Shown one piece after another: positions 593 to 19,850 of a stretch of DNA of 19,850 bases. Every line of letters starts with the position of its first letter. Position 1 is the first letter of the stretch. The stretch lies in assembly GCA_038851075.1 (NCBI GenBank), contig JAWCLG010000016.1, positions 1 through 19,850 on the forward strand. The letters are read 5' to 3'. The notes under the pieces are model-generated. The model was given only the letters and a program-made list of their open reading frames with translations. It did not search any database and was not told where the DNA came from. Origin of the DNA: Candidatus Hadarchaeales archaeon (lineage in GTDB: Archaea > Hadarchaeota > Hadarchaeia > Hadarchaeales > Hadarchaeaceae). The translations under genes were made by a program, and so were the position numbers.

Positions 593-600
593 GATACCAC

Positions 601-867
601 CTAGACCCGGTGCATGGCCTTGAATATCTCTTCCCTCTGAACCACAACGTTCATTCCGAGCTTTTCACCCGCACAGGTCACCGCTTTCTTCAGCCCCTCG
701 AAGCTGCTCTTTTTAAGGTCGCAGACTATCAGCATCACGAACTTGTCCTCAAGTCTGGATGAGGTCAGATCCTCGATGTTTGCACCGGCCTTTGCGATGG
801 CGTTTGAGATTCCGGCCACTATTCCAACCCTGTCTGTGCCAACGGCGGTTATCACAACTCTGGTCAT
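601..867 (-). CDS. Stand-alone ACT domain protein (UPF0237 family)
   Basis: MTRVVITAVGTDRVGIVAGISNAIAKAGANIEDL...QREEIFKAMHRV has the ACT signature and the UPF0237 C-terminal motif. Start moved from 906 to ATG 867, which lies about 30 nt downstream of a TATA-like element. Confidence 0.9.
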   Translation of the reverse strand: MTRVVITAVGTDRVGIVAGISNAIAKAGANIEDLTSSRLEDKFVMLIVCDLKKSSFEGLKKAVTCAGEKLGMNVVVQREEIFKAMHRV

Positions 868-3465: not shown

Positions 3466-4812
3466 TCAGTGTGAATGTGGCGGCAGCCTTTTCCTTATAA
3501 AGTCGCCAAGGAAGTACCACAGCGGTCTGGTGGGCTCAACCTTTCTAACCTCATGCAGCCGCGGAAGCATGATCACCGAGATAAGCAGCCTGAGCGCTCC
3601 AGAGATAAGGAAGAGCAGTAGAAAGACGGACATGAATCCGGGTTTCACGTACGTCGCGAGCATCCCTCCGATGGTCGCCCCCAGGAAAACGCCGGCCCCG
3701 TTGAGCGCCCCGAAGTACGCGAAGCATATCCCGCGCCTCTGCTTTGAAACAGCATCATAGATGAAATTGCTGGATGCGAGGTTGAACCCTGCCCAGAGAA
3801 AGCCTCCGAGTCCCTCGATGGCTATCAGGTATGGAGGGTCGGTTGAGAATAACCAGAGCACCGGTATAACGGGCACCAGAAGCCCGCAGATTTTCAGCAC
3901 GATCAGGTTTCCCCGCCTGTCCGAAAATTTGCCCCAGACCGGCATGAAAATCACGTTTGCGAGTGACGAGCTGAGTGTGACCGCTACAAACGTGATGTAG
4001 CTGAAGTTCAGCTCCTTCAGCATGTACACGGCAAAGAACGGAGATGCTATGTTGACGGCCAGGGCCATCGCGGTGGCGTATATCGTAAACCTTCCAAAGT
4101 TGTTGTTTTTTGCTTTTCTCACGAAGCTGAAGAAGCCGAAGTAGTACTCGTGCCCGTATTTGAAGGACGGCTCGTACTGCCTGGTGAGGAAGTAGAAAGA
4201 AAAAAGCCTGGCGATCATCGCCGATATGAAAAGCGCGACGAATCCGAGTATGACGAGTTCTCTGCTGAACGCGTCGAGAAACACTCCGCCCAGCAGCATG
4301 GCGCACAGTCCTGCAGTACCGACTATCGTGTTTCTCCTGCCGAAGAATCTGCCTCTTTCACCCTCAGGAACCAGATCCCCCATCCACGATGACCAGGCTG
4401 GAGAAACGAACGATCCCATCAGGAGGTAGAGCGTGTAGAAAATTATCACGAGCATGGGGGCCAGAATTCCGTTTATCCCTAATAAAAGAAATGCGATGCC
4501 GACCATAGAAATAGGGATCCACATCATAGCCTGGGCGAACACGAACATCGTCACTATCCTCTTTCTGCTCATTTTTTCCATCAGTTTTGGGGTTTCGATC
4601 TGCGAGAGGTTGGCGATGAGGTTCGGGACTGATGTCAGGAAACCTACCTGTGCCGGGTTCGCGTTCATGGCCAGGATATAGGGAGTCATATAGGAGTTGC
4701 CGAGTCCGGAGTTTACGGACCAGGCCACCCCGTCTTTGACGCTGTAACTGAGACTTCGCCTTATTTCCTCGTCCATAAATTCCTTGGATGACGTTTTCTG
4801 TGTGTCTTGCAT
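3466..4812 (-). CDS. Major facilitator superfamily transporter
   Basis: 448 aa with about 12 hydrophobic segments. MFS motif-A-like GKFSDRRG, plus WSSWMGDLVPEGERGRFFG. Confidence 0.88.
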   Translation of the reverse strand: MQDTQKTSSKEFMDEEIRRSLSYSVKDGVAWSVNSGLGNSYMTPYILAMNANPAQVGFLTSVPNLIANLSQIETPKLMEKMSRKRIVTMFVFAQAMMWIPISMVGIAFLLLGINGILAPMLVIIFYTLYLLMGSFVSPAWSSWMGDLVPEGERGRFFGRRNTIVGTAGLCAMLLGGVFLDAFSRELVILGFVALFISAMIARLFSFYFLTRQYEPSFKYGHEYYFGFFSFVRKAKNNNFGRFTIYATAMALAVNIASPFFAVYMLKELNFSYITFVAVTLSSSLANVIFMPVWGKFSDRRGNLIVLKICGLLVPVIPVLWLFSTDPPYLIAIEGLGGFLWAGFNLASSNFIYDAVSKQRRGICFAYFGALNGAGVFLGATIGGMLATYVKPGFMSVFLLLFLISGALRLLISVIMLPRLHEVRKVEPTRPLWYFLGDFIRKRLPPHSH

Positions 4813-4829
4813 GAAGATCGTCTCCGGGG

Positions 4830-4838
4830 TTTTAAAAA
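4830..4838 (-). promoter_or_regulatory. Putative TATA box for a leaderless MFS transcript; the T-run may also terminate purH
   Basis: Minus-strand TTTTTAAAA begins 26 nt before ATG 4812, just after the purH stop. Confidence 0.45.
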
Positions 4839-4843
4839 CAAGC

Positions 4844-6364
4844 TCAGTGCCTGAAGTGTCTGGTTCCGGTTAGCACCATGGAAATTCCTAATTTTTCAGC
4901 AGTTTCCACGATTTCAGAGTCCCGTATAGAGCCCCCGGGCTGAATGATTGCAGCGACCTCTGCCGCAGCCGCCTTCTCGACGGTGTCCTTGAAAGGTATG
5001 AACCCGTCGGACGCCATGACGCTTCCCTTCGCCCTGTCTCCCGCCTTCTTTATCGCGATTTCAGCTGAGTCGACCCTGCTCATCTGTCCGGCCCCGATGC
5101 CGACAGACTGCCTATCCTTAGCCAGCACTATAGCGTTCGACCTCACGTGTTTCGCGACCTTCCAGGCAAAGATGAGGTCAGAGAGCTCCGCCTCTGACGG
5201 TTTTCTCTTAGTGACGAATTTCATTTCTCCAGCCGTTATGATGGAATCCCGATCCTGGGCTAGCATTCCTCCGGTTATCTGTCTGTACTGAATACCCTCC
5301 TGGCCCTCAATCATCTTCAGTATGCGCATGTTCGGTTTCCCGCTGAGTACCTCCAGAGCTGTGCTGGAGTAGTCAGGCGACACGACGGCCTCTATGAAGG
5401 TCGAGGATATCTCAGCCGCGGTTCTATCGTCAACAGCGCGGTTTACTCCCACGACGCCTCCATAGGCCGAAACGGGATCACATGCATGGGCCTTTCTGTA
5501 GGCGTCAAGCAGATTTTCTGCGCTGGCGACCCCGCAGGGATTACCGTGTTTTATTATCACCGCGGATGGCTCTTCGAACTCCCTCAGGAGGTCCCATGCG
5601 GCGTCGAGGTCCAGATAGTTGTTGAATGAGAGCTGTTTTCCCTGCAGGCACCTTGCGCCGGCGATTCCGGTCCCGGTGCCGTCTGTATAAATAACCGCCC
5701 TCTGATGCGGGTTCTCTCCGTACCTGAGAGTATCCGCCCTTTTGAAGGAGAGATTGAGGATCTCAGGAAAAACGTCCCCGCCGAAGGCTCTGTTTAGGTG
5801 ACTTGATATCATGGTGTCGTACCTTGCCGTGTGGGAAAATGCCTTGACAGCCAGACGTCTGCGCGAGCTTTCACTTATTTCACCTGTTTTTTTCAGTTCA
5901 TCGATTATCCAGCAGTAATCGTCAGGGTCCACAACGACCGCCACGTCCGAGAAGTTTTTGGCCGCGGACCTAACCATAGCAGGACCCCCTATGTCTATGT
6001 TCTCCACCGCCTCTTCGAGCCCCGCCCCTCTCTTCACGGTTTCCTCGAACGGATAGAGGTTCACGACAACCATGTCTATGAGCGGTATCCCGTGTTCCCG
6101 CGCCGCTCTGATGTGTTCGGACTTTTTCCTGACAGCGAGTATCCCTCCGTGGATTCTCGGGTGAAGCGTCTTTACGCGGCCGTCCATCATCTCTGGAAAT
6201 CCAGTGATCTGAGAGGCATCTATAACACCTATCCCGGCCTCCCTCAGGATCTTTGCGGTACCGCCCGTGGATATTATCTCCACCCCGAGCCCCTGGAGTG
6301 CCCTAACAAATTCTACTATGCCCCTCTTATCAGAAACGCTCACCAGCGCTCTTGAGACCCTCAG
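4844..6364 (-). CDS. purH: Bifunctional AICAR formyltransferase / IMP cyclohydrolase
   Basis: RALVSVSDK, STGGT, GRVKTLHP, NLYPF, IDIGGP, LRYGENPHQ, SFNNYLD, KHGNPCG, GAGQMSRVDS, ASDGF, QPGGS and C-terminal RHFRH. Start placed at CTG 6364 (see findings); the ORF-track alternative is GTG 6415. Confidence 0.96.
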   Translation of the reverse strand: MRVSRALVSVSDKRGIVEFVRALQGLGVEIISTGGTAKILREAGIGVIDASQITGFPEMMDGRVKTLHPRIHGGILAVRKKSEHIRAAREHGIPLIDMVVVNLYPFEETVKRGAGLEEAVENIDIGGPAMVRSAAKNFSDVAVVVDPDDYCWIIDELKKTGEISESSRRRLAVKAFSHTARYDTMISSHLNRAFGGDVFPEILNLSFKRADTLRYGENPHQRAVIYTDGTGTGIAGARCLQGKQLSFNNYLDLDAAWDLLREFEEPSAVIIKHGNPCGVASAENLLDAYRKAHACDPVSAYGGVVGVNRAVDDRTAAEISSTFIEAVVSPDYSSTALEVLSGKPNMRILKMIEGQEGIQYRQITGGMLAQDRDSIITAGEMKFVTKRKPSEAELSDLIFAWKVAKHVRSNAIVLAKDRQSVGIGAGQMSRVDSAEIAIKKAGDRAKGSVMASDGFIPFKDTVEKAAAAEVAAIIQPGGSIRDSEIVETAEKLGISMVLTGTRHFRH

Positions 6365-6394
6365 ACCATCACCAAAAGAGGGACGTCCGAACAC

Positions 6395-6403
6395 AATAAA
6401 AGC
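6395..6403 (-). promoter_or_regulatory. Putative TATA box of purH
   Basis: Minus-strand CTTTTATTG-like element 30-40 nt upstream of CTG 6364, followed by a GGTGA SD. Confidence 0.45.
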
Positions 6404-6758
6404 CTTGGCTCTCACCCTGAAATCGACCTACCGTACTCCACGGTGTGCATGCTGTTGGTTGTGACTGAGCCAGATCCTTCTGAGTCCGGCATCATCTCCG
6501 TCGTATGGCATATGTGTGGGTGAGCAGTAATTTTCTTTCTGCCCATCTTGCCGAGTATGTTCATTGTTTCGAAATTTTATGCTCCGTTGTAGCTCGACGC
6601 CACGATCCTGTAGGCCTTCGAGTGTCGTGGATCAACCATAACCCTGTTTCCGGGATAGGCAGGCGCTGCCCGGACATTTTGACGGGACGGTCGATTGACA
6701 GGTAAGTCACATATGTGGAATGCTTCAAACTTGAAGCCGGCAGCAAGTGAATTGCCGT

Positions 6759-7682
6759 CTATTTTTTAGTTTTGGAGTTTTGTTTTCCGCCGGATATCTC
6801 CTTCAAATTCGTGAAACCGTGGGCCCTCATGTATTGATCCAGCCCCCCGGCAATTTCCTTGAAAACACTGATACCTTTTGTAGCAACAGCAGACCCGATC
6901 TGCACCGCACTGGCTCCGGCAATCATGAACTCCGCCGCGGATTTCCAGTCCTCAACCCCGCCGCACCCAACGACCGGAATGGTCAGGGCCCTTCGCAGTT
7001 CATGAACGCACCTCAGCGCAATCGGGCGAATTGCGGGACCGGACAGACCCCCGTAAACGTTCGAGAGAACAGGAGAGCGAGAGCCAACGTCTATCAGCAT
7101 CGCCCTTATGGTGTTGATGGCAACAACAGCATCAGCGCCGGCGTGCTCCGCTGCAAGTGCGGAGTCGATGTAACTGTCGCACAGGCCGAGCTTAACGAAT
7201 AGAGGAATTTTCAGGTCTTTCTTGGTTCCACGGACTATCGCCGCAACAAGCTTCGGATCGCTCCCCACCTCTATGCCGTGCTTTTTCACGTGGGGGCAGG
7301 AGAGGTTAAGCTCAACCGCATCGGCTCCGGCTTTCTCAGCCTCCAGACATATCATTCTAAACTCTCCGGCCGAGCTTCCGGCAACGCTCACTATGACGGG
7401 CACCTTTCCTCCTTTTGCGATGGGAAGTTCACTGTCCAGAAATTCCCTGTATCCCTGATTCGAGAGCCCAACTGCGTTAACAAGACCTCCTTCAAAGCCC
7501 GCGATTACCGGGGTCTGATAACCAAGACGCTTTTCTGTCGTGAGACTTTTTGTTACAACAGCTCCGGCACCCCCCTCCAGAGCAGCTCTCTTCAGGAGAC
7601 TCCCGTTGCACAGGATCCCAGAGGCCAGAATTAGAGGATTCCTGAGTCTCAGTCCGGCCAGATTAACCGAAAGTCGCGACAT
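6759..7682 (-). CDS. pyrD: Dihydroorotate dehydrogenase family 1B, catalytic subunit
   Basis: NPLILASG, VTKS, NAVGLSN, ELNLSCPH, AINT, GGLSGPAIRP, GCGG and VQIGSA. Last gene of the pyr operon. Confidence 0.95.
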   Translation of the reverse strand: MSRLSVNLAGLRLRNPLILASGILCNGSLLKRAALEGGAGAVVTKSLTTEKRLGYQTPVIAGFEGGLVNAVGLSNQGYREFLDSELPIAKGGKVPVIVSVAGSSAGEFRMICLEAEKAGADAVELNLSCPHVKKHGIEVGSDPKLVAAIVRGTKKDLKIPLFVKLGLCDSYIDSALAAEHAGADAVVAINTIRAMLIDVGSRSPVLSNVYGGLSGPAIRPIALRCVHELRRALTIPVVGCGGVEDWKSAAEFMIAGASAVQIGSAVATKGISVFKEIAGGLDQYMRAHGFTNLKEISGGKQNSKTKK

Positions 7683-8934
7683 TTCTCCCCCACCCTTGCT
7701 CTCCCGTTATCGTCCCGTGATCCATCACAATTTTTCCTCTCACCACCGTGGCTGCGGGAGCTCCGATCACCTCAAAGCCCTCAAAAGGAGAGTACTTGCC
7801 CCTGCTGACAAAAGCCTTTGGGTCTATCCTCCACCTTTTGCTCATATCCACGACGGTCAAGTTCCCGATTTTTCCCTCCTCTATGCTTCCGAGCATTTTC
7901 AGTCCCAGTATTCTGGCCGGAGCCTCAGCACATGCCCTTACCAGATCCTCCAGCTCGATCACGCCGCGATTGACGAGGGTGAGCATGAGAGGAAGCGTGG
8001 TCTCGAGTCCCGGAAATCCGGGTGAGGCGCTCCTGGGGTCTTTCTTTTCCTCGGGGAGATGAGGCGCGTGGTCCGAGGAGACCGCGTCGATTTGTCCGGC
8101 CTTCAGTGCACCCAGCAGAGCCTCCCTGTCCTCCCTGCTCTTGATCGGAGGGTGAACCTTGGCCACCGCTCCAATGCGCTCCACGTCCTCTCTGGTTAGG
8201 AGCAGATAGCACGGGCATGTGTCTGCAGTTATTTTTATTTTTTTCTTCCACAGAGCCAGTTCCCTTGCTCCCAGATAGGACGAGAGATGTGTTATGTGAA
8301 GCCGGAATCCGATCCTCTCCGCGATGGAGGATATCTCCGCCACTGCCGATGCCTCGGCATCTGGAGTTCCGGCCGGCCCCATCCCCTCATCTGCATAGAA
8401 CTTCGGGTTCTCTGCGTGAACCACAACCGTTTTATTATTCTCAGCGGCGTATTTCAGAGTTCTCAGGACCTCGGGCCTCAATTCCGAGTAAAACTCTTTC
8501 TGCATGAAGAGCTTGAATCCAGTGGCCAGCTCCCTGACCTTTTCTCCAAGGTCTGCCGCGCTATGAGGGATTCCGTAGTAAATTCCATAGTCTACCAGGG
8601 CCTTGCTCCCGGCCGTGGCATCCCTCTTCAGCAGAGTCGGGATACTGTTCACGGGAGGCTTGGTGTTTGGCATATCGACCACAGCGGTAAATCCCCCCAT
8701 TGCCGCGGCCATCGTGCCGGACAGGAAATCCTCCTTTTTGCTCTGTTCAAAGTCCCTCATGTGGACGTGCATGTCAATGAGCCCTGGGAGCACGATCTCC
8801 TCGTCCCTGAGCTTCATCGCGTCGGATGGAGACACGTTTCCGCCGACCCTCGTTATCATTCCCTTCTCTATCACAACGCCTCCATCGGTGATTCCATCGG
8901 GCGTGAACACCTTTCCAACAATCGATAGCTTCAT
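7663..8934 (-). CDS. pyrC: Dihydroorotase (amidohydrolase family)
   Basis: PGLIDMHVHMR, DMPNTKP, HAEN, HITHLS and SDHAPH. ATG 8934 has an AGGAGG SD and an ATGA overlap with the pyrK stop. Confidence 0.93.
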   Translation of the reverse strand: MKLSIVGKVFTPDGITDGGVVIEKGMITRVGGNVSPSDAMKLRDEEIVLPGLIDMHVHMRDFEQSKKEDFLSGTMAAAMGGFTAVVDMPNTKPPVNSIPTLLKRDATAGSKALVDYGIYYGIPHSAADLGEKVRELATGFKLFMQKEFYSELRPEVLRTLKYAAENNKTVVVHAENPKFYADEGMGPAGTPDAEASAVAEISSIAERIGFRLHITHLSSYLGARELALWKKKIKITADTCPCYLLLTREDVERIGAVAKVHPPIKSREDREALLGALKAGQIDAVSSDHAPHLPEEKKDPRSASPGFPGLETTLPLMLTLVNRGVIELEDLVRACAEAPARILGLKMLGSIEEGKIGNLTVVDMSKRWRIDPKAFVSRGKYSPFEGFEVIGAPAATVVRGKIVMDHGTITGEQGWGRNVATFG

Positions 8935-11169: not shown

Positions 11170-11776
11170 CCTTATCACCCCTGATGTACCTCACCACCCT
11201 TTCATAATCATCCTTTTTCAGCATCCCTTTTAAGTGAAGTTCCTCCGCCAGCTCGGATGCGGTCGTAATCGAATGGAGCCTCGCGCCGAGTTTTGAAAGA
11301 GCTTCTGCCGCCCCCTGCTCCCTGTCGATCATCACCAGAACTGAATTCACTACTGCACCCTTTTCCCGGAGAGCGGTGATCGCCCTGACGAGACTCCCTC
11401 CGGTTGTGGCCACATCGTCAAGAAGTAGCACGACATCGCCCTTTTTCACAGTCCCCTCGACAAGGTTCCCAGTGCCGTGTGTGCGCTCCTCCTTTCTGAC
11501 GTAAAGGAAAGGCGCTCTCAGCTTGTACGCCACTAGGGAGGCTATTGGAATTCCTGCGGTCGCTATTCCCGATATCCTGCTGTACCTCTCGCCAAGTTCT
11601 TTTATCCTTTCCACATAGGCATCGGTAACAGTTTCAAAAAGGTGTGGATATGAGGGCACAGCTCTCAGGTCTATGTAGTACGGGCTTGTGATTCCAGAGG
11701 AGAGCTTGAATTCTCCGAAGAGGATGCATCCGTGTCTCGCCAGATCCGTTGCGAGTTCCGATACCTCAACGGTCAC
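11162..11776 (-). CDS. pyrE: Orotate phosphoribosyltransferase
   Basis: [27 protein letters not shown] and PRPP-binding [14 protein letters not shown] start with GGAGG SD. Confidence 0.95.
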
Positions 11777-12518
11777 CTCTCATCGCCTCCGCTATTTCCA
11801 TCGCTTTTCTGGCCGGGGATGCATCGTGGGTTATGCTCCTCCCGATTATCTCAAAGTCAGCCCCGGCTGAGATTGCAGATCCGAATGGAGCTCCCTGAGT
11901 GCCAACTCCGGGAGAGAATATCAGCTTTGATCTGTATCTGGACCTTGCCTTCCTTATGAGGTCCGGGAAGGTGGCAGGCAGCACGAACCCGTCGACCCCG
12001 GAGGACTCGGCTGTTGCAAGCAGCCCGTCAAAGTGTTTGTTCAGGTGCTCGGAGGCCCCAGGATGGCTCATAGCGCAGAGTCCCAGCACTCCCCTCCCCA
12101 TGTTTTTCGCGAGATCAACCACCTGGTCCATCCCGTCCTTTTTCCCAACCACGGCGTGAATGATGAGGGCGTCAAATCCGGCGCAAAATATCTGCTCGGC
12201 CACAAGCCTGTTCACGTGTCCTATGTCAGCCATCTTCGAATCGCATATGAAAAAGTAACTTTTCCTGAATGATTTTATCATGTCCTCCACGGCGTCCAGG
12301 CCTAGGGCGAAGATGGCGGGTACTCCTATCTTGACACCGACAACCGTTCCTTCGAGCTCTCTAAGCACCTTATTTATCCAGTCAACAGTTTTTGCTCTTT
12401 CACCAGACCTTTCGCCACGGGGTTTTGAGTATGGGTTGATGGCGGGATCAAAAGCGACCACAATCCTCGGCTTCGATTCAGCCGCCTTCAGCACCTTTTT
12501 GGCAAAGCCCTCGTCCAC
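11766..12518 (-). CDS. pyrF: Orotidine-5'-phosphate decarboxylase
   Basis: VKIG, catalytic DSKMADIG, MSHPG, PAT, SPGVGTQG and IIGRSI. Start at GTG 12518, favoured by TATA spacing and the paralogous remnant at 14196; alternative ATG 12530. Confidence 0.93.
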   Translation of the reverse strand: MDEGFAKKVLKAAESKPRIVVAFDPAINPYSKPRGERSGERAKTVDWINKVLRELEGTVVGVKIGVPAIFALGLDAVEDMIKSFRKSYFFICDSKMADIGHVNRLVAEQIFCAGFDALIIHAVVGKKDGMDQVVDLAKNMGRGVLGLCAMSHPGASEHLNKHFDGLLATAESSGVDGFVLPATFPDLIRKARSRYRSKLIFSPGVGTQGAPFGSAISAGADFEIIGRSITHDASPARKAMEIAEAMRGDR

Positions 12519-12546
12519 AAGCCCTTCCATAGTTTGATATTGGATG

Positions 12547-12554
12547 TTATAAAA
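12547..12554 (-). promoter_or_regulatory. TATA box of the pyr operon (also TATA-like on the + strand)
   Basis: TTTTATAA on the minus strand, TTATAAAA on the plus strand. The 16-mer TTATAAAAGGGTTGCG recurs exactly at 14224-14239. Confidence 0.6.
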
Positions 12555-12607
12555 GGGTTGCGTTATGAAAGCTAAGTGAACTTCATTTCACAGCCGTGGA
12601 TAAACGA

Positions 12608-12840
12608 GCATAACGGAGTGAAAATCATCAGCGATGGCGGATATGTGCCCATCGGTGGCGTACCTCGGGAGAGCTTTAAGGCCAGATCGATCGACTCCGA
12701 CATCCAGCCGCCCTTCAGCCCCTGGTGAAAACGTTCCAGGAGGCGTAGCGCCGACCAAAACAAACTGGGTCCTGATTGCAGGCATAATCGCGATAATCGC
12801 GGCCGTTTTTCATATTGATCGCGAAAGGGGTGAACTCTAG
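12608..12840 (+). pseudogene. Collapsed remnant of a paralogue of gene A (14249-16378)
   Basis: 12608-12660 encodes HNGVKIISDGGYVPIGG, matching gene A HNGLDITGDGRYILVGG (15811-15863; 39/53 nt by hand). It then jumps to the A tail (PGENVPGG..PTKTNWVLIAGIIAII), where an extra T frameshifts the transmembrane anchor. Confidence 0.8.
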
Positions 12841-12855
12841 CTTCCTGGTGCCGGG

Positions 12856-13073
12856 TTTTTATATCAGAGTTTTATAGTGGTCACCGGTGGTATGGGCTCG
12901 CACGGGGCCGCAGCAGGCCTTATCGTTGCTGTCGTGGTGATCGTGGCGCTAGTGGCGTGCCTGGGATACTTTTTCATTCTCCGTCCGGCGGAGCAGGGTG
13001 GCGGGGCACCGCAGGGTGAGAATGAACCCGGTGGTGGGCAGGGGGGAGAGCCGAGCATCTCGCTCACAGTTCA
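12856..13073 (+). repeat. Direct repeat copy 1 (218 nt: TATA-like elements, start, TM anchor, Gly/Pro linker); weaker similarity extends back to about 12701
   Basis: Hand alignment to 16400-16617 at offset 3544 shows 3 mismatches and no indels. Confidence 0.95.
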
Positions 13074-14127
13074 GCCCGCCGATAACGGGGATTCAGTCAT
13101 GCTGGCGTGGTCCGAGTATCCCCGCGATGATTTTGTGAGTTATGTCGTATACCAGTCCGCTGTTTCCGGAGATATTGGGCGCCAGGTGACGACGATAACA
13201 AATAGGGCTAAAACTTCAGAAATTGTGTACATGCTTTTTCCTAACACAACTTATTACTTCACCGTGAGGGTCAACCGAGCTGGAGGAACGTATCTCGACT
13301 CCAATCAAGCTAGCTTCACAACTTCAGGGGGTACCCCCAGCCAACCGGGACTGCCGCATCGAGTACTGAGCGCAGCCTCAGCTGATGGGCTGGTCTGGGT
13401 GAAAGATAACCGTATGGTTTCCGATCGGGCCTCGGTACCTGACGCGGTCTTCGACGGAGAGAACATCAGGGTATACTTTGCCAAGTGGGGCATCAGAGTG
13501 GCGATCTCCCGCGATGGTGTGAACTGGGAGGAAAAGGAGGTAAATATCTTAGGGATCCCCAACGGGAAGGGAGCGGTGGATCCGGACATTGTCCTTCTTC
13601 CTGACGGAAATTACAGGATGTATTACTATGAAAACCCCATGGGTGGGGGTGACCCCGCCATGATCCCCGGACCTCACAGCATTTACGTTGCGGTGTCTGA
13701 GGACGGCATAAATTTCCGCAGAGAACGCGAGGTCTACGCGCGAGAGTGGATCACTGACCCGGATGTAATTCAGATGGGTAACGTCTGGCGAATGTTCGTT
13801 TCCGAAAACGCGGGGACCACTTCTGCGATCTCGTATGATAACGGCTTGAGCTTTACCTTCGAGCGCGAACTGGAAGCGATAGATGGCTCCGTGACGTGCA
13901 CAGTCGCCGTGTCGAACGGATACCGAATGTACTACCATGCTCCGGAAACTCCGCCCCGCATCTACTCCGCGTTTTCCACTGATGGTACAACCTGGGTGAA
14001 GGACCAAGGGGTGAGGATCGAAGCGGGGGCACCGGGCTCTCTCGATGAAAATGGTGCAGAAGCAGCAGCGGTGATCAGGATGCCCGACGGAAGCTATCGC
14101 ATGTACTATGTATCCAGGTATGGGTAA
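12892..14127 (+). CDS. Gene B1: N-terminally anchored surface protein with an FN3-like domain and a predicted five-bladed (glycoside-hydrolase-like) beta-propeller
   Basis: Hydrophobic N-terminus, Gly/Pro linker, FN3 pattern (VMLAWS...LFPNTTYYFTVR), five S-x-D-G-x-x-W/F-like motifs (SADGLVW, SRDGVNW, SEDGINF, SYDNGLSF, STDGTTW) and DP motifs. ATG 12892 follows GGTGG; alternative GTG 12877. Confidence 0.8.
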   Translation: MGSHGAAAGLIVAVVVIVALVACLGYFFILRPAEQGGGAPQGENEPGGGQGGEPSISLTVQPADNGDSVMLAWSEYPRDDFVSYVVYQSAVSGDIGRQVTTITNRAKTSEIVYMLFPNTTYYFTVRVNRAGGTYLDSNQASFTTSGGTPSQPGLPHRVLSAASADGLVWVKDNRMVSDRASVPDAVFDGENIRVYFAKWGIRVAISRDGVNWEEKEVNILGIPNGKGAVDPDIVLLPDGNYRMYYYENPMGGGDPAMIPGPHSIYVAVSEDGINFRREREVYAREWITDPDVIQMGNVWRMFVSENAGTTSAISYDNGLSFTFERELEAIDGSVTCTVAVSNGYRMYYHAPETPPRIYSAFSTDGTTWVKDQGVRIEAGAPGSLDENGAEAAAVIRMPDGSYRMYYVSRYG

Positions 14128-14136
14128 ATTCTCGTA

Positions 14137-14196
14137 TCAGCTTTCACAACAATTTTTCGCCGCTTCCGCTGCCCTTCTGACGAAGGCCTCGCTCAA
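14137..14196 (-). pseudogene. Degenerate copy of the pyrF 5' end
   Basis: GAGGTG SD, then TTG and MSEAFVRRAAEAAK versus PyrF MDEGFAKKVLKAAE (25/39 nt). An out-of-frame KIVVKAD resembles PyrF RIVVAFD. The adjacent promoter 14209-14239 matches 12532-12562 at 26/31 nt. Confidence 0.65.
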
Positions 14197-14223
14197 AGCC
14201 CACCTCTGGTTTGATATGGTGAC

Positions 14224-14239
14224 TTATAAAAGGGTTGCG
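14224..14239. promoter_or_regulatory. Duplicated TATA element, probably the promoter of gene A
   Basis: TTATAAAAGGGTTGCG is identical to 12547-12562 and begins 25 nt before the in-frame TTG 14249. Confidence 0.55.
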
Positions 14240-14248
14240 GCGCATGTT

Positions 14249-16378
14249 TTGGATGGTGCGACAACGAAACCTGGACGTACAGGATGTATAAATTTCGCCG
14301 TGTGCGCATCAGTACTTCTGGTCATAGTTCTTTTGTTCGTGAGCTCAAGAACCGTGAAGGCTCTGCCCGATAATATCACGGCAACGACATCGGCGTTCGA
14401 GGTCACTTTCGATCAGGCCACATATAGGGTGGTGGACCCGCTTCAGCGTGGACACTTCTGGGCCACTGTGAGAAATAAGGGAAATTCCCCGGACAGGATA
14501 ATGTTCTTTGTAGTGGATAACGGAGTTGACCGTGACGCGGGTTATGTTTATCTCGAGCCAGGGGAAACCGGAGAACACAAGGTGGTCCCCGAGCTTCACA
14601 TAATGGGAACAGGGACTATGACGCAGAACTACAAAATAGTGTCCTCCCGCGATCCAACCGCTGTGGCGTACGTCAACGTGACGATAGAGACCGTCCAAAT
14701 AGATATTCAGGAACTTCCAGTGAGTGATTTCACCGTAAATGTGTATGACGCGACCACGCATGAACCAATTGAAAACGCGACCGTATATTACCGTTACAGC
14801 CCCGAGTCCCGTGGGGAACCGGCAGCGATGCTGGGGGGCGGGAGATTCAGTTTTTCAATCATAGACTTTAGCGGGCCCGCCGCTGAGTATGGGATTTCAT
14901 GGCAGGGTTACACCGTTGAGGTCAAGGCCGCTGGTTATCGCACCTACCAGGAGAATGGTCTGATGCCGGAAGACAGCAACACGCTGGACGTTTATCTGGT
15001 CCCGCTGGCAGAGATAGCCAGCTTTCAACCGGTTTGGATGGAGAATCTGGAGTACCCGGGAGTTTGGAGGGTCAGGCCATCCGAGGACTGGGAATATATC
15101 GCGGTGGGGATGGGCAAGCATCCTGATCCGTGGGATGTACCCGTTTCAACTAAGGTTCATCTGTTTAACATCGCGGGCGAAAAGCTCTGGGATTATCCTG
15201 TTGGAGATCAGGTCTGGGGAATAGACATAAGCAGGGATGGGTCAATGGTCGCCGTGGGAAGTCATGACGGCATGCTGTGCGTCATAGGCCGTTCTGGCAA
15301 CCTGCTGTGGTCGGAGAACGCCCACACGCTGCTCCGGGAGGTAAAGCTTTCAGATTCTTACCTGGGAGCGGAAACTGTGCCGATAAAGCTTTACGATCCC
15401 GAAACGGGCGAGGTACTATGGGAGTACGATCCTGGCTTCGTTGTATGGTGGAGAGGCATAACTTTCAGCCCGGACGAGAAATACGTCTTTTACGGCGGCA
15501 GCAATTCGCTGATAATGTTTGACATAGAAAGCGGGACCCAGGTCTGGCACGAATATGTAGGGGGCTTACCCTACGACATAAAGATAACTCCAGACCTCTC
15601 CAGGATAGTGGTTGCGGACAAGGGCAGCGTTCTTTCGTGTTACAACGCCCAGGGGGATCTGCTGTGGCGTGAGCGAGATATTCCAGTCCTCACCGATATG
15701 GACATGAGCAACGATGGTTCCAGGGTGGTAACGCTCAGCCATAACGGAACCGTTCGGATGTACGATGGCGATGGAAATCTGATGTGGGAACGGATGCTTG
15801 GTTCGGGCGGGCATAACGGACTGGACATTACCGGCGATGGCAGGTATATCCTCGTGGGCGGCGGAGTTACCTCGGCCGGTGGCGGGAGATCTTTCCCATA
15901 CGCGGTTTACCTCCTTGACAGCGATGGAAATCTGATGTGGGAGCACAGTCAGCCGGGTCCGATTCCGGAGCCCTATCACCCCTACCACATCTCAGCGATG
16001 TCCGTCGCAATATCCGAGAACGGATCCTACATACTTGCAGGCTACGGCACGGGCAATCCCGGCATACAGCTCTTCAGCGGCGGCATAAGCGGAGATTCCG
16101 ACCACGACATGATGCCCGACGAATGGGAAACCCGATACGGGCTGAATCCGAATGACCCGAACGATGCAGCTCAGGACCAGGACGGAGACGGTTACACGAA
16201 CCTGCAGGAATATCAGGCTGGCACCGACCCGACATTGGCATCCAGCCATCCTGCGCCTCCAGGCGAAAACGTTCCAGGAGGTGGGGTAGGGCCGACTGAA
16301 ACAAACTGGGTCCTGATCGCCGGCATAATCGCGATAATCGTGGTTGTTTTCATATTTATTGCGATGAAAAAGAGATGA
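14249..16378 (+). CDS. Gene A: secreted, C-terminally anchored surface protein (Ig-like domain, carboxypeptidase-regulatory-like domain, WD40/PQQ-like beta-propeller, TSP3-like Ca-binding repeats, TM + KKR)
   Basis: Signal peptide ending SRTVKA/LP; VNVYDATTHEPIENATV...YTVEVKAAGY; repeated G-x-L-L/M-W blade ends and DISRDG/FSPDE-type turns; DSDHDMMPDEWE...DQDGDGYTNLQEYQAGTDP; WVLIAGIIAIIVVVFIFIAMKKR. Start uncertain (TTG 14249 or ATG 14216). Confidence 0.8.
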   Translation: MDGATTKPGRTGCINFAVCASVLLVIVLLFVSSRTVKALPDNITATTSAFEVTFDQATYRVVDPLQRGHFWATVRNKGNSPDRIMFFVVDNGVDRDAGYVYLEPGETGEHKVVPELHIMGTGTMTQNYKIVSSRDPTAVAYVNVTIETVQIDIQELPVSDFTVNVYDATTHEPIENATVYYRYSPESRGEPAAMLGGGRFSFSIIDFSGPAAEYGISWQGYTVEVKAAGYRTYQENGLMPEDSNTLDVYLVPLAEIASFQPVWMENLEYPGVWRVRPSEDWEYIAVGMGKHPDPWDVPVSTKVHLFNIAGEKLWDYPVGDQVWGIDISRDGSMVAVGSHDGMLCVIGRSGNLLWSENAHTLLREVKLSDSYLGAETVPIKLYDPETGEVLWEYDPGFVVWWRGITFSPDEKYVFYGGSNSLIMFDIESGTQVWHEYVGGLPYDIKITPDLSRIVVADKGSVLSCYNAQGDLLWRERDIPVLTDMDMSNDGSRVVTLSHNGTVRMYDGDGNLMWERMLGSGGHNGLDITGDGRYILVGGGVTSAGGGRSFPYAVYLLDSDGNLMWEHSQPGPIPEPYHPYHISAMSVAISENGSYILAGYGTGNPGIQLFSGGISGDSDHDMMPDEWETRYGLNPNDPNDAAQDQDGDGYTNLQEYQAGTDPTLASSHPAPPGENVPGGGVGPTETNWVLIAGIIAIIVVVFIFIAMKKR

Positions 16379-16399
16379 AACCCAGTTCTTGGCACCAGA

Positions 16400-16617
16400 T
16401 TTTTATATCAGAGTTTTATAGTGGTCACCGGTGGTATGGACTCGCACGGGGCCGCAGCAGGCCTTATCGTTGCTGTCGTGGTGATCGTGGCGCTCGTGGC
16501 GTGCCTAGGATACTTTTTCATTCTCCGTCCGGCGGAGCAGGGTGGCGGGGCACCGCAGGGTGAGAATGAACCCGGTGGTGGGCAGGGGGGAGAGCCGAGC
16601 ATCTCGCTCACAGTTCA
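16400..16617 (+). repeat. Direct repeat copy 2 (218 nt); weaker similarity extends back to about 16239
   Basis: 215/218 nt identical to 12856-13073. Confidence 0.95.
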
Positions 16618-17671
16618 ATTTCTTGAAAGTGAGGGCTGCGTAAAGCTGACATGGACAGAGTACTCCGGCACAGATTTCATCAGCTACGGAGTGTACAGGT
16701 CCATGGCTTCAGGAGACATCGGAGAGCTTGAGAACACCATTGCGGACAGCAGGAAGACCTCGACGATGCAGTTTGATCTTTCGCCTGAAGTAACTTACTA
16801 CTTCACCATAAGGGTCAACCGTTCAGGGGCGGCTCCCATCGATTCCAATCAGGTTGGGTTCCAGCTGCCTGAAAAGGAGAAAGAAAACGTGCCCGGAGGA
16901 GGGGAGAATCAACCGCCAGGCAGGTCAGGGCCTTACTACCATCAGATATACTCCGCAACGTCCACCGACGGAATAAACTGGACCTTCAACGAGAACCTCA
17001 TCTTCGACCACGCCTCGGTTCCGGGGGCGGTTTACTTTAACGGAAAGCTCTATGTCTACTTCGTGAATGCTTCGGATCCAGAGCACGAGAAGCTGAGTGT
17101 GGGCATCAGCGAGGACCGCGGCAGGACTTTCACGGTTCATGACATCCACATCAGCGGCTCAAACAGTCCGTATCCTGTGGACCCGAACCCAATAATAGAT
17201 GGAAACAAGATAAGACTCACTTACCTCGGCAACCTCAGAAATCCCATAAATATAGTCACGGCGTCTTCCACGGACGGAATTAACTTCACCGAAGACGCCG
17301 TGATATTCACCGCGCAGGGGAGGACCAGCGTATTCGATCCGGACCTCTTCTACGACGATGTTGCGGGAGAGTGGGTGCTCCTGATGAACCCGGGTCAGGG
17401 TCTGATAAAGGCGGTGGGATCGTCATCTACTTCGACATTTGTGATTGACCCAAGTTTCAGCTGGGTGGAGGGCAGCATATCCTCCACGGTGAAGATAGGA
17501 AACAAGTTCTACACGTACTACGCCTGGGGAGGGACATCAATCGCTGAGTACTCCAACGGCAGGCTCACGGTTGTGGCCAGGATGGTGGTGGACGGTGGAG
17601 ATCCTACCGTTGCGATATTCGGACCGAACGATTACATCATGTTCGTAAAGAGGATTGTTGAGCCTTCCTAA
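16436..17671 (+). CDS. Gene B2: paralogue of B1 (N-terminal anchor, FN3-like domain, beta-propeller)
   Basis: The first ~61 aa are nearly identical to B1, followed by a divergent FN3 (LSPEVTYYFTIR) and propeller (STDGINW, ASVP, SEDRGRTF, VDP, STDGINF, FDPD). Confidence 0.8.
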   Translation: MDSHGAAAGLIVAVVVIVALVACLGYFFILRPAEQGGGAPQGENEPGGGQGGEPSISLTVQFLESEGCVKLTWTEYSGTDFISYGVYRSMASGDIGELENTIADSRKTSTMQFDLSPEVTYYFTIRVNRSGAAPIDSNQVGFQLPEKEKENVPGGGENQPPGRSGPYYHQIYSATSTDGINWTFNENLIFDHASVPGAVYFNGKLYVYFVNASDPEHEKLSVGISEDRGRTFTVHDIHISGSNSPYPVDPNPIIDGNKIRLTYLGNLRNPINIVTASSTDGINFTEDAVIFTAQGRTSVFDPDLFYDDVAGEWVLLMNPGQGLIKAVGSSSTSTFVIDPSFSWVEGSISSTVKIGNKFYTYYAWGGTSIAEYSNGRLTVVARMVVDGGDPTVAIFGPNDYIMFVKRIVEPS

Positions 17672-17951: not shown

Positions 17952-19850
17952 TCAGCTCGGGCTGAACCTCAGCAGTCTGTTGGAAAACTTGAACTCTCCG
18001 ACCCAGAGGTAGCTGCCGTCAAAGGAGAGGCCTGCAGGGTTGTAGAATCTGTTTCTCCCTATGGCGGGCTGATATGCGGTGCCGCTCATCTGCCCCAGAA
18101 TCGCGTCCGGCGGTGCTTTGCTTGAGGCAGATTCAATATCCTCCCATACCAGCACGCGGTTGTATCCTGTATCTGCGATGAACAGGTGCCCGTCTTTGAC
18201 TGCCGCAGCCTGCGGGAGGTTGAATCCCGCGCCGCCGACCGAGAAATCCGGCTGAGCGTTCGCGGATAGATTTGCCACCCTGTAAACATCAACCGAGTGA
18301 CCGTATATCTTATCAACGAGCAGGTATTCTCCATCAGAGTCCAAGCGCCAGGGGTCATTCGTGTTTATCGTGAACTTGGGGAGAGGGTTGAGGTTCTCGT
18401 CCGGCAGTCCCTCCCATATGTAAATCTTATCCGCACCGTAGTCCGACAGGTAGAAATAGCGGCCGTCCATGGCCACCCCCCTCAGTTCCTGAAATGTTAT
18501 CTCGCCTATTCTGTTGTTGATGATGACATCCGGAAAATTGCCGCTGAGCGGGAGGCTCTTCCATATGTAAAAGCTTCTCTCTCCCGCGATTGCGAGAGCG
18601 TTCTCCCAGAGCGCAATGTCGCACGGCTGCACCGGAGGGACTGCATTTTTGAAGTTGTATACTATGTCCGGATATGCGCCGCTCTCGTCCGGAATATTTT
18701 TCCAGACGTACAGCTTCCGGTCGAAGTCGGAGACAACGAAGAGGTTCCTCCCGTTGGAGGCGGGAACTCCGTTCTGTATGAAGTAGTTGGCGTCAAGGGT
18801 GTTCGTCTGGAGGTCTTGAGCTCCTATGATGAAATCCGGCTCCTGGTTCTGCGAGGTCGGAACCGAGTTGTAACCTATGACTCTGTTCATATTGCCCTGG
18901 GAGATATAGATTCGGTTGCCCGCAACAGCCACGCTTTCATAGTCCCCTGCGAAGAGCTGGGCGCTTCTGAGCTCAAGCACCGTGTCTGCCTCATCATCTT
19001 TGCTCTGCGGAAACGAGTTCCATATCCTCAGCTCCGGGCGTTCTCCACCGAGGAGCAGGAGTTTCCCATCGCTTAGAAATGCTCCCCGCAGCCAGCCGAA
19101 TCCCTTTGACATGAAGAAGTCATAGGGTTGATCATCGGTGGTGGGGAATGTGCTCCAGAAGAAGGATCCGTGGCTGTGTTCTCCCTCCACGTTGGCGTTG
19201 TGATCTCCAACTATCAGGCAGTTGCCATCGCTGGTTATGTGCCTTGGCGTCCCCATGTCTCCACCTCCAGTGAGCACTATATCCGCCCGCTGGTTGTCCC
19301 GCGTGGGAAATGTGTTCCAGATCAGTACAGATCCTCCTGCCCATGTGTTGCTCACCACCAGCTTTTGGCCGTTGGTCCACACGCACCAGGACCCTCCCGG
19401 CAGATCGCTCTCCCCCCGTGGTGTCCAGTATGACCCTCCGCCCTCGAGCACGATGTCCGCAGGGGCAGCGTTCTGGGCAGGCATGCTGTTCCATATGAGA
19501 ATGCGGGCGTTGTTGACGTCTGCAACCACTAAATGTGTCCCGTCCGTGGCAACGCCGAAAGGCCAGTTGAGCTGGTTTCTGCCGGTGCCGGGGTTATTTG
19601 ACGTGAAGTCCGGTTGCCCGAGCACGAGGTCTGGCGGCACGTTTCCGGCAGGCAGGGTGTTCCAGACGAGCACCCTGTTGTTGAATGTGTCGGCGAGGAA
19701 AAGCCGCTGACCGTCGGTTGCTATCCCAGACGGGTGATTAAACAGGAGAGGCCCGCCGGTGTTGTTGAAGTCTATCCCTGAGAGCATGATATCCGCATCC
19801 TGACCCGTGTGGAACCAGCCTGAAGTTTCTCCGCCGGTAGTCCTGTATGC
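17952..19850 (-). CDS. NHL-repeat beta-propeller protein, 5' end outside the window
   Basis: Repeated P-x-G-I/V-A-T-D-G...L-F/V-x-AD...N-x-R-V/I-L-x-W units, with PDLVLGQPDF-type motifs. The frame stays open from ATG 19787 to the window edge (AYRTTGGETSGWFHTGQDADI). Confidence 0.85.
   Translation of the reverse strand, partial: AYRTTGGETSGWFHTGQDADIMLSGIDFNNTGGPLLFNHPSGIATDGQRLFLADTFNNRVLVWNTLPAGNVPPDLVLGQPDFTSNNPGTGRNQLNWPFGVATDGTHLVVADVNNARILIWNSMPAQNAAPADIVLEGGGSYWTPRGESDLPGGSWCVWTNGQKLVVSNTWAGGSVLIWNTFPTRDNQRADIVLTGGGDMGTPRHITSDGNCLIVGDHNANVEGEHSHGSFFWSTFPTTDDQPYDFFMSKGFGWLRGAFLSDGKLLLLGGERPELRIWNSFPQSKDDEADTVLELRSAQLFAGDYESVAVAGNRIYISQGNMNRVIGYNSVPTSQNQEPDFIIGAQDLQTNTLDANYFIQNGVPASNGRNLFVVSDFDRKLYVWKNIPDESGAYPDIVYNFKNAVPPVQPCDIALWENALAIAGERSFYIWKSLPLSGNFPDVIINNRIGEITFQELRGVAMDGRYFYLSDYGADKIYIWEGLPDENLNPLPKFTINTNDPWRLDSDGEYLLVDKIYGHSVDVYRVANLSANAQPDFSVGGAGFNLPQAAAVKDGHLFIADTGYNRVLVWEDIESASSKAPPDAILGQMSGTAYQPAIGRNRFYNPAGLSFDGSYLWVGEFKFSNRLLRFSPS

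Follow-up and report, generated by a model that had tools for sequence, protein, structure and literature searches.

The window analysed here is the whole of a 19.85-kb contig (19,850 nucleotides) of one Hadarchaeales MAG (G000), whose host is an uncultivated hot-spring archaeon with a 1-Mb genome; a single congeneric genome (G001) was compared with it. On the left, 12.5 kb of this contig are taken up by a gua/pur/pyr biosynthesis block that has pyrF as its last gene, after which the order is promoter, collapsed A, B1, a 70-nt ghost of the pyrF 5' end, promoter, intact A and B2. In the locus one and the same unit (the first ~24 codons of pyrF, a divergent promoter, gene A and gene B) is present in two versions, diverged and stacked, and every one of these elements lies where the initial annotation had put it. 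A repeat search and self-BLAST recover the match between 12701-13073 and 16239-16617 (89% over 381 columns), and these direct repeats of ~375 nt (89%; core of 218 nt at 98.6%) bracket a 3544-nt segment with one B body and one A. Convergent with B2, a gene for an NHL-repeat surface protein (17952..19850, minus strand; Pfam NHL) runs off the contig end as an open ORF, and its homologues adjoin B1-type genes on metagenome contigs L037-L040. Scans of the window for tRNAs and Rfam families gave no match.

Genes A and B and their relatives

Intact A (14300..16378, plus strand; Pfam PQQ_2, E = 2.2e-17, and TSP3_bac) codes for a protein with a signal peptide, N-terminal beta domains and a PQQ/WD40-like beta-propeller in its first part, followed by TSP3 calcium-binding repeats and a C-terminal membrane anchor with a terminal KKR. 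Its start codon is probably the GTG at 14300, with the TTG at 14249 as a possible one; a longer ORF from 14108 was discarded, as it is not conserved and G001 has an in-frame TAG upstream. In G001, contig C36 carries pyrF directly abutting one intact A, downstream of a syntenic pyr operon (61-90% protein identity), and ends inside A at residue 435, before any B gene would be reached. Intact A is 86-87% identical to this partial A (407-424 residues present) and 75% identical to that of a second relative, P0001 (60% in the tail, 72-87% elsewhere). At third codon positions its identity to G001 is 0.79 overall (0.66, 0.76, 0.85 and 0.83 along the gene), against 0.43-0.57 in the eight genes that flank it and a G000-G001 median of 0.49, with a 95th percentile of 0.77, over 699 coding frames in the table filtered against shadow reading frames. 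About 8-10 other internal genes also reach 0.78-0.88, so that the closeness of A could be due in part to codon bias or to general gene flow. Contigs of sequencing run X3 are 85% (14135-14497) and 90% (15424-16002) identical to A, which shows that a distinct A allele really exists.

Relatives of A are found in 4 of 65 genomes of the class, G000 included, and two of the four are only 40-41% identical; around the A-like genes (38-41% identity) of two genomes of genus g9, neither pyrF nor B is present in the nearest 1.5 kb. The adjacency of A and pyrF is confined to this genus, other genera having neither A nor B beside pyrF, and a metagenome scan with A gave 30 pattern matches, none of them confirmed as a relative. 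For P0001 and for P0118, a B2-type protein, the longest reporting contig is 8616 nt in both cases, suggesting that the two lie on one contig and that a second relative pairs A with B2.

Collapsed A (12605..12840, plus strand) is a pseudogene without the N-terminal part, reduced to two fragments that read in different frames: a blade-like one (12605-12668, 72% identical to 15808-15875) and the C-terminal membrane-anchor tail (12692-12840), in which 12694-12810 codes for 40 residues that are 75% identical to residues 673-712 of A. Between the two tails (~80% nucleotide identity), 31 of 44 third positions and 77 of 85 first and second positions are identical, a codon pattern indicating that the tail evolved as coding sequence before it decayed. 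The A tails appear to have diverged under purifying selection, which fits two alleles from separate genomes that were later united.

B1 (12892..14127, plus strand) codes for an N-terminal membrane anchor, a disordered linker, an FN3 domain (Pfam fn3) and a five-bladed beta-propeller of the GH130/GH43 type, and B2 (16436..17671, plus strand) has the same architecture with FN3 and propeller of a different clade. In the AlphaFold model of B1 (mean pLDDT 87.4) a helix spans residues 6-29, a sandwich 58-143 and the propeller 156-409, and the best Foldseek matches are GH130, GH159 and GH43 enzymes (E ~1e-8, target TM-score ~0.6). The products of A and B are both extracellular beta-propeller proteins tethered to the membrane by an anchor, and the predicted resemblance of B to five-bladed glycoside hydrolases and phosphorylases weakly suggests that it probably binds or cleaves carbohydrate; an NCBIfam search of the A tail and the B head gave no sorting-signal family.

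The identity between B1 and B2 is distributed very unequally along the protein (GTG numbering), with 60 of 61 residues in the head (residues 6-66; 98%), 39 of 81 in FN3 (48%) and 64 of 228 in the propeller (28%). B2 and P0118 share the head-FN3-propeller build and are 78% identical over 99% of the length of B2, the identity rising from head (63%) through FN3 (74%) to propeller (86%), and the B2 propeller is 62-69% identical to proteins of ~300 aa from other genera (62-64% in g2). B1-type relatives occur in genera g9, g10 and g12 at 50-55% identity, and the B1 propeller is 73-85% identical to P0034-P0039 and 82-85% identical to proteins of metagenome contigs (82-84% on L037-L040), on which the other ORFs with any match are only 28-52% like this genome. 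This homology begins at 13318-13333, in the linker between FN3 and propeller and not at the boundary of the head, and a metagenome scan with B1 gave six loci, none of them with pyrF or A. In G001, a search with the bodies of B1 and B2 gave none, its sole match being one of 40% to head residues 6-68 in an ORF upstream of NHL; a donor with the order pyrF-A-B1 was not found. For each B body the nearest proteins are found in other organisms and not in its neighbour, and the two propellers are, as judged by these comparisons, old and separate clades.

The pyrF ghost, the junction and the B heads

The pyrF gene (11766..12530, minus strand) is intact and codes for an OMP decarboxylase of 254 aa (Pfam OMPdecase, E = 1.9e-28) that is 73% identical to that of the congener, with a third-position identity of 0.53, typical of the genome. 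The identity to G001 declines gently towards the 5' end, from 0.79 to 0.64 (64-67% for the 5' end itself). Upstream lies the divergent promoter of unit 1 (12531..12562), with TTATAAAA at 12547-12554. The ghost of the pyrF 5' end (14134..14207, minus strand) retains ~24 codons, lacks 8 nt that the congener has, and reads ALSEAFVRRAAEAAK on the reverse strand; it is followed by the unit 2 promoter (14208..14239), with TTATAAAA at 14224-14231. In a 5.5-kb self-comparison the 69 nt of 12494-12562 are 73.9% identical to 14172-14239 (E = 1.4e-5). Ghost and promoter together (14153-14239) agree with the real pyrF start and promoter of G001 in 83 of 87 nt, and a further 8 nt match past the 8-nt gap; four or fewer mismatches in 87 nt have a probability of 6e-8 at the genome-wide divergence of 27%. 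With 95% identity to G001 and only ~74% to unit 1, the ghost represents the pyrF allele type of the congener and not that of its own genome, which, along with the 0.79 of A at third positions, is suggestive, and not proof, of DNA from another genome.

The end of unit 1 meets the ghost at 14128..14136, directly after the B1 stop codon (14125-14127). Similarity to the pyrF of the congener starts at ~14134 (13 of 20 nt by manual count) and is clear from 14145, the 3' end of B1 being joined to pyrF codon ~24 with no repeat at that place. The junction that formed the tandem, 7-10 nt past the B1 stop and inside pyrF coding sequence, would be an illegitimate join.

The two B heads form a putative gene-conversion tract of 218 nt with one copy at 12856..13073 (plus strand), containing the B1 TATA TTTTTATAT (12856-12864), the ATG at 12892, the membrane helix and a Gly-rich linker, and the other at 16400..16617 (plus strand), containing the promoter, start codon, anchor and linker of B2. 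The 215 identities in 218 nt counted in the initial annotation were reproduced by global alignment, with mismatches only at 12896, 12951 and 12963, and the heads share an exact run of 110 nt. The edges of the tract are sharp, identity falling to about half to the right of 13073/16617 and to ~80% on the left (12701-12855), and three or fewer mismatches in 218 nt against the 80% background have a binomial probability of 2e-17. At the protein level, and with P0118 as the one outgroup, the affinities of the tract follow the genome it lies in instead of orthology. The joint of A tail and B head is the least conserved part between lineages and the most conserved within this genome, which argues for intragenomic gene conversion rather than a shared anchor. 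Both heads are on one MAG contig, and independent contigs bridge B1, ghost and A on one side and A tail, head and B2 on the other. The 22 nt at the end of the head had no exact match in the genome contig collection, from which G000 is possibly excluded.

Origin of the tandem arrangement

These observations are best accounted for by a history, to which slightly better than even chances are given, in which a related population supplied a diverged unit that came to lie next to the resident one by way of an illegitimate junction, one A decayed, and a conversion of 218 nt equalised the promoters and anchors of the two B genes. The original state of the genus would be a single unit, of which pyrF, promoter and A are seen by comparison and the B2-type gene after them is presumed. 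DNA of a related population would have recombined additively, leaving the resident unit in place, with one incoming end inside pyrF or just past the B1 stop, joined without homology 7-10 nt downstream of that stop, and the other end presumably resolved by a crossover in a homologous flank, the pattern of homology-facilitated illegitimate recombination. Unit 2 (ghost, A and B2) is favoured as the newcomer because it resembles the congener, and the reverse, in which unit 1 entered via a crossover within pyrF, is possible. One of the two A genes was then cut by deletions and a frameshift to the two fragments now seen, and both B genes stayed intact because their ectodomains differ. More recently, to judge from the pattern, 218 nt with B promoter, start codon, helix and linker would have been copied onto the other B, the tract ending where pre-existing homology ended, so that promoter and anchor are now alike in both B genes. 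No special enzyme would be required for any of these steps, since end joining and general recombination suffice.

Against import stands the uneven similarity to the congener (95% in ghost and promoter, 80% in the 5' part of A, 93% in its middle), which makes a single transfer insufficient and calls either for constraint on the ghost (e.g. regulatory sites of A upstream of the TATA) or for several exchanges. The homologous crossover that import needs was not located, the right flank being confounded by overlaps of MAG contig ends. A candidate exchanged island of 11 kb, suggested by the 99.55% match of 18954-19850 to the end of G001 contig C13 and by identity climbing to 99% where G000 contig C9 ends, was rejected, as the match belongs to a class of such overlaps. 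Among the 25 HSPs of at least 93% between 799,367 nt of G001 and G000, 14 are terminal in both contigs and 20 reach a contig end on one side or both, and in each of the two bins there are contigs that belong to the other type. At their contig ends the two public MAGs of this genus interlock, and apparent "transfers" at 99% between them call for caution.

An internal tandem duplication (from pyrF codon ~24 to past the B stop) that arose in this lineage by unequal or illegitimate recombination, followed by long divergence, replacement of one propeller by a foreign one, decay of A, drift of the real pyrF start and re-homogenisation of the heads, is rather unlikely, although the head-to-tail geometry and the junction right after a stop codon are as such an event would leave them. 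Regulatory sites in the ghost could hold it congener-like, the real pyrF start being free to change once the first A had died, and PyrF N-termini do differ between genera; moreover, the A tails of the two units (~80% of nucleotides, 0.70 at third positions) are more alike than the genome background between species. However, this course requires a non-coding ghost to stay 95% like another species when synonymous sites are at 0.49 genome-wide, the working pyrF to have replaced over half of the ~20 residues at its start, and two tandem A genes to remain functional until 30% third-position divergence before one was lost, and propellers only 28% identical would still need a separate import. In the ghost and in the B bodies the two units are not each other's closest relatives. 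The view of the initial annotation that one duplication followed by drift would not easily give this mosaic is borne out by the 83 of 87 nt shared by the ghost with the congener allele, by the 0.79 against 0.49 of A at third positions and by the foreign affinity of the B1 propeller.

It is distinctly unlikely that the arrangement is an assembly artefact, in which two co-occurring populations were joined at the heads or in the 3' part of A, B1 and B2 or B2 and NHL then not being on one chromosome. The possibility is raised by the exchange of sequence at contig ends and the mixed bins of these MAGs and by the exact 110-nt run in the heads. The assembly was checked with Logan contigs of four runs (contigs only, no raw reads), and these break at both heads. 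Contigs of run X1 differ from the window at 6 of 969 nt and 6 of 1844 nt in B2 and NHL, against two or fewer per contig leftward, and three of the NHL differences are variants of G001 C13. On the other side, the junction of B1, ghost and A has no misleading repeat and was recovered by a second assembly, in an X1 contig (13044-15013, one difference) that runs from B1 through the ghost into the start of A. An X1 contig (11774-12810) and an X2 contig (11655-12799, 97% identical) cross from pyrF into the A remnant, and an X3 contig (16355-17329, three differences) spans the A tail, the head and the B2 body; the join of A remnant, head and B1 body (12810-13044) is supported by the MAG contig alone. 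The heads retain three distinguishing mismatches, and pairing them the other way leaves a circle of 3.5 kb. Across the locus the X1 contigs have similar depths (9.2-13.4), and no further copy of A, B1, B2 or NHL is present elsewhere in the bin. As for strain-level alternatives, none is legible from the Logan contigs of the four runs, in which uncovered stretches are uninformative.

The initial annotation had gone further and proposed that A and B alleles from related genomes are exchanged as cassettes through conserved anchors, with deletion of older copies. Parts of this proposal hold, since the locus did take up DNA of related or foreign genomes, as seen in the ghost, in intact A and in the B1 propeller (82-85% identity, against 28-52% for the other ORFs), and an older copy was lost, one A being reduced to two fragments. 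The anchors did not fare as well: the joint diverges between lineages (head 63%, A tail 60%) and cannot be a shared anchor, the border that makes the tandem coincides with no repeat or conserved site and looks like an illegitimate join, and the foreign homology of B1 begins at 13318-13333, in the FN3-propeller linker. Nor is there sign of a dedicated or recurrent exchange system, the locus being one instance, with A beside pyrF in this genus only. The remark that recombinases, integrases and reverse transcriptases are absent was upheld by a Pfam scan of the 17 ORFs of the window, and none appeared among five ORFs from the region of G001 C13 that adjoins it. In the repeat search just two inverted repeats turned up, both weak (23 nt, 78-83% complementary) and neither at a unit border as attC-like sites would be, and for a diversity-generating retroelement or shufflon the ORFs scanned hold no reverse transcriptase or invertase and the repeats are direct.

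One form of exchange, in which the 3.5-kb segment (B1 body, ghost, promoter, A, A tail and head) would behave as a mobile cassette, cut out and re-inserted through general recombination at the A-tail/B-head repeat, is very improbable; if true, ectodomain units would move among co-occurring hot-spring Hadarchaeales in a recombinase-free, integron-like surface variation, with conversion maintaining the docking repeat. Least probable of all is a cassette-exchange locus with joint and pyrF promoter as anchors and repeated swaps of A/B ectodomains and deletion of old ones (with the 3544-nt inter-repeat segment looping out and re-integrating as a circle as one variant of it), in spite of the ~375-nt direct repeats around a segment of one B body and one A, the foreign affinities of both modules, the persisting remnants of an older copy and the standing of archaeal surface-protein islands, in the description of PMC4535781, as hot spots of exchange; none of the 15 joints and 24 loose ends listed from the contigs (36 and 547 others being outside that list) falls inside 12481-17671, an uninformative result in itself. 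What the locus seems to record is ordinary recombination with gene conversion, instead of a dedicated swapping of cassettes.

Relation to known systems

De Vries and Wackernagel (2002) and Prudhomme et al. (2002) are said to have described homology-facilitated illegitimate recombination in transformable bacteria. The outcome that seems to be recorded here is of the same type, with a crossover at one end and a non-homologous join at the other as outlined for such bacteria in PMC3240628; unlike there, the process is read from sequence alone and the homologous anchor was not located. The same mechanism is proposed by Kirchberger et al. 2017 (PMC5361080) for arrays of T6SS effector-immunity, Rhs and CDI genes. 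As in the sequential displacement arrays presented there, an acquired module appears to have been added beside the old one, remnants of displaced genes remain, and the proposed route has one homologous anchor and no dedicated integrase. In contrast to those arrays as they are described (PMC5361080), the present locus is archaeal, has no toxin or immunity genes and consists of whole genes with their own promoters, and it has a housekeeping-gene scar, one stacking event and a conserved 5' part that would come from later conversion.

Among archaea, the GI1 island of Haloquadratum walsbyi (PMC4535781) is comparable as a mosaic surface locus formed, by that account, through homologous recombination among co-occurring lineages. 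Replacement islands of this type have alternative versions per site in different clones, and no gene duplications are reported for them (PMC4535781). Here, unlike in GI1 as portrayed there (PMC4535781), two versions are stacked in one genome, beside a biosynthetic operon and over only ~5 kb, and comparison of the site gives a single unit in G001 and neither A nor B next to pyrF in other genera. The conversion tract recalls the archaeal mtrA duplicates, for which PMC4632066 describes how partial conversion keeps a part of neighbouring paralogues near-identical while the rest diverges; it differs from the case described (PMC4632066) in that the tract consists of a promoter and the membrane anchor of a surface protein and looks like a single recent event.

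The significance of the locus lies in a legible scar, a housekeeping fragment of neighbour-species type stranded between surface-protein genes, in which modules would have been gained and lost by general recombination alone. Stacking, pseudogenisation of a redundant gene and conversion of promoter and anchor can all be read within 5 kb, and would extend to Hadarchaeota the pattern of bacterial displacement arrays and haloarchaeal envelope islands.

The pyrF-linked surface-protein locus

The window is the entire contig C16 of the G000 MAG (1.0 Mb, 29 contigs, 88% complete), and the runs that contain its sequence are labelled hot springs metagenomes. Its left 12.5 kb carries nucleotide biosynthesis genes, with domains of GMP synthase, IMPDH, AICARFT/IMPCHase, dihydroorotate dehydrogenase, amidohydrolase, PyrI, OTCase-type, phosphoribosyltransferase and OMP decarboxylase, and the A/B region is bounded on the left by pyrF (11766-12530, minus strand) and on the right by an NHL-repeat gene in convergent orientation, which extends from 17952 to the end of the contig. 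Repeat finding, self-BLAST and global alignment confirmed the two-unit arrangement next to pyrF described in the initial annotation: pyrF, a collapsed A and B1, followed by a ghost pyrF start (14134-14207, minus strand), an intact A and B2. The start and promoter of the real pyrF (12494-12562) match 14172-14239 (69 nt, 73.9%); the A remnant (12605-12840) matches the last propeller blade (64-68 nt, 72%) and the C-terminal anchor (140-nt tail) of the intact A; and 12701-13073 is 89% identical to 16239-16617. The near-identity noted for the B heads (215/218 nt), which comprise promoter, start, membrane anchor and linker, holds as well: 12856-13073 and 16400-16617 differ at 3 of 218 positions, with identity dropping abruptly to the right of 13073/16617 and standing at about 80% left of this core, a background against which three or fewer mismatches in 218 nt have P = 2e-17. 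The remnant also contains a 68-codon ORF (12634-12840) that opens with ATG, keeps the C-terminal membrane helix intact and could encode a small membrane protein; no family or homologue of this ORF was found.

The A product begins with a signal peptide, continues with a PQQ/WD40-like propeller and TSP3 repeats, and closes with a C-terminal membrane helix with a KKR end. In B, an N-terminal membrane helix is followed by a disordered Gly-rich linker, an FN3 sandwich and a five-bladed propeller. This architecture identifies both as membrane-anchored extracellular proteins. B1 and B2 have 416 codons each from a GTG, or 411 from the ATG that relatives use. The structural model of B (mean pLDDT 87.4) has its best Foldseek matches in GH130 mannoside phosphorylases, GH159, GH43 and GH117 (E ~1e-8, target TM-score ~0.6), and a profile search of PDB sequences gave E = 1.8e-4, faintly hinting at a carbohydrate-related role. 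A probably starts at GTG 14300, about 70 nt past the TATA box; its homologue P0001, from a third lineage, has an ATG a few codons upstream of the matching position. At 14108-14299, a long plus-strand ORF reads through the ghost and overlaps the end of B1, and is not conserved, because G001, the only congeneric genome compared, has an in-frame TAG at the equivalent place. An exact 22-nt direct repeat within A (15768-15789 and 15921-15942) was rejected as a mobile-element feature, since it reflects the GDGNLMWE motifs of neighbouring propeller blades. A distant third B paralogue with an N-terminal membrane helix (452 aa) is located on G000 contig C14 (5384-6742, minus strand) in an unrelated gene neighbourhood; its propeller is 31-37% identical to that of B1, and the adjoining stretch (3751-5356) is 91% identical to G001.

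The ghost pyrF and the divergence of A

The pyr operon is syntenic among the 25 relatives examined by a PyrF search, and A stands beside pyrF only in the same-genus G001, whose contig C36 has one intact A directly after pyrF and stops at A residue 435. Of 65 genomes in the class, four, G000 among them, were found to have a relative of A, in two cases only 40-41% identical. The single-unit layout of G001 represents the ancestral state. The ghost matches the real pyrF start and promoter of G001 at 83/87 nt, plus 8 matching nt past an 8-nt gap, while the 5' end of the resident pyrF shares 64-67% with that of G001 and 74% with the ghost. This closer likeness to G001 than to the resident pyrF suggests that the ghost is the allele of that other species, cut at about codon 24 and set 7-10 nt past the B1 stop codon.

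When G000 was compared with 799,367 nt of G001, weighted mean identity was 72.9% across 566,180 aligned nt. Out of 958 ORFs (150 aa or longer, 100 or more aligned codons), 699 frames were kept as true coding, with a median third-position identity of 0.49 and a 95th percentile of 0.77. The intact A reaches 0.79 (0.66, 0.76, 0.85 and 0.83 along the gene) and eight flanking genes 0.43-0.57, placing A in about the top 5% of frames, together with some 8-10 other internal genes at 0.78-0.88. Metagenome run X3 contains contigs that match two parts of A at 85% and 90%, which establishes the diverged A allele as real.

One duplication followed by drift, which the uneven identity of the units had already made doubtful, is ruled out by the data. 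On balance, the probable explanation is an additive gain, in which a related population would have supplied a diverged unit that was placed beside the resident one through one illegitimate junction, the redundant A would then have been lost, and a 218-nt gene conversion would have followed; unit 2 is more likely the newcomer than unit 1. An internal duplication followed by later exchanges could also have produced the two units, although we regard this as unlikely. The closest described parallel comes from Vibrio, where T6SS effector-immunity modules are displaced, as proposed by homology-facilitated illegitimate recombination (PMC5361080); among archaea, Haloquadratum with its mosaic cell-wall island comes closest (PMC4535781). 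In a limited full-text search on Hadarchaeota and recombination, no such locus appears in the titles and abstract openings of the matches listed.

Physical support and contig ends

An assembly artefact affecting the order of the units is improbable. Among Logan contigs of four runs, an X1 contig (13044-15013, 1 difference) spans B1, the ghost and the start of A, and an X3 contig (16355-17329, 3 differences) spans the A tail, head and B2; pyrF is joined to the A remnant by contigs from X1 (11774-12810) and X2 (11655-12799, 30 differences). Both heads interrupt the contigs, an effect to be expected at k = 31, and none among the matches listed from the four runs crosses 12810-13044. X1 differs from the window at 6 positions in 969 nt (B2) and 6 in 1844 nt (NHL), and further left at no more than 2 per contig. 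These contigs confirm the key scar as real DNA, but the complete order depends on the MAG assembly.

The end of G001 contig C13 is 99.55% identical to window 18954-19850 over 897 nt, identity with C13 climbs to 99% at the end of G000 contig C9, and C13 appears to bridge C9 and C16. An 11-kb recently exchanged island at these ends was considered and rejected, since near-identity clusters at contig ends genome-wide: of 25 HSPs of at least 93% identity, 14 are terminal in the G000 as well as the G001 contig (mostly 99.3-100% identical) and 20 touch at least one end, and every frame with third-position identity of at least 0.9 is within 626 nt of an end. G000 C21 duplicates G000 C3 57486-66866 at 68-77%, yet its dovetail with two G001 contigs is 99.8% identical, and G001 C37 is 85.7% identical to G001 C21, yet 99.4% to window 1-649. 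Dovetailing involves C6, C11, C12, C14, C16, C19, C21, C23, C24, C26 and C27 of G000 and C2, C8, C13, C25, C33, C37, C38, C39, C41 and C43 of G001. The two bins interlock and cross-contaminate, each containing contigs of the other type; contig-end matches are therefore no evidence of gene transfer, and the ends of both public MAGs of the genus are unfit for inferring it.

The A-tail/B-head joint and the modules of B

The joint between A tail and B head had been proposed as a conserved anchor, which the comparison between lineages contradicts. B2 and its orthologue P0118 (78% over the full length, with a common head-FN3-propeller build) share 63% in the head, with 10 gapped positions, 74% in FN3 and 86% in the propeller, and A and P0001 share 60% in the tail and 72-87% elsewhere; between B1 and B2 the order is reversed, with 98% in the head (60/61 residues), 48% in FN3 and 28% in the propeller. 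These opposite orders argue for a joint that evolves fast between lineages and would have been homogenised within this genome by gene conversion, as a result of which B1 and B2 have identical promoters, start codons and anchors. The tract is limited on the left by the B TATA box and on the right by the linker/FN3 border, which is the point where prior similarity was too low for recombination.

Three further genera of the family have B1-type propellers with 50-55% identity, and a fourth has B2-type ones with 62-64%. In a large protein collection, the B1 propeller is 73-85% identical to proteins of ~300-330 aa with a similar anchor and without FN3. P0118 and P0001 (75% to A) each report a longest contig of 8616 nt, so the third lineage, too, probably has A next to a B2-type gene. 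On the metagenome contigs L037-L040, a B1-type gene (82-84% aa, 79-81% nt) adjoins an NHL homologue (51-52%; in L040 a 70-residue fragment, 64%), the pair occupying 4952-9068 in L037 and 630-4472 in L039; other L037 ORFs with any G000 match are 28-40% identical. Nucleotide homology of B1 to these contigs runs from 13318-13333 to the B1 stop codon, and therefore starts at the FN3-propeller linker rather than at the head boundary. A dedicated cassette system, bringing in alleles through conserved anchors, is the least credible reading.

B1 and B2 are modular proteins of different origins. In L037, an FN3 domain 56% identical to that of B1 opens a long frame (4952-8029) that also holds the NHL domain. 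The contig end truncates the NHL-repeat ORF of the window (17952-19850). Its counterpart in G001 C13 (18700-19974) stays open in the upstream direction, where the sequence shares 40% identity with B-head residues 6-68; a B-like N-terminal membrane anchor is therefore probable for the NHL protein. Further upstream, C13 encodes a histidine kinase, a FIST protein, a response regulator and a 788-aa Ig-like protein. These surface proteins seem to draw on a shuffled set of anchor, FN3 and propeller modules.
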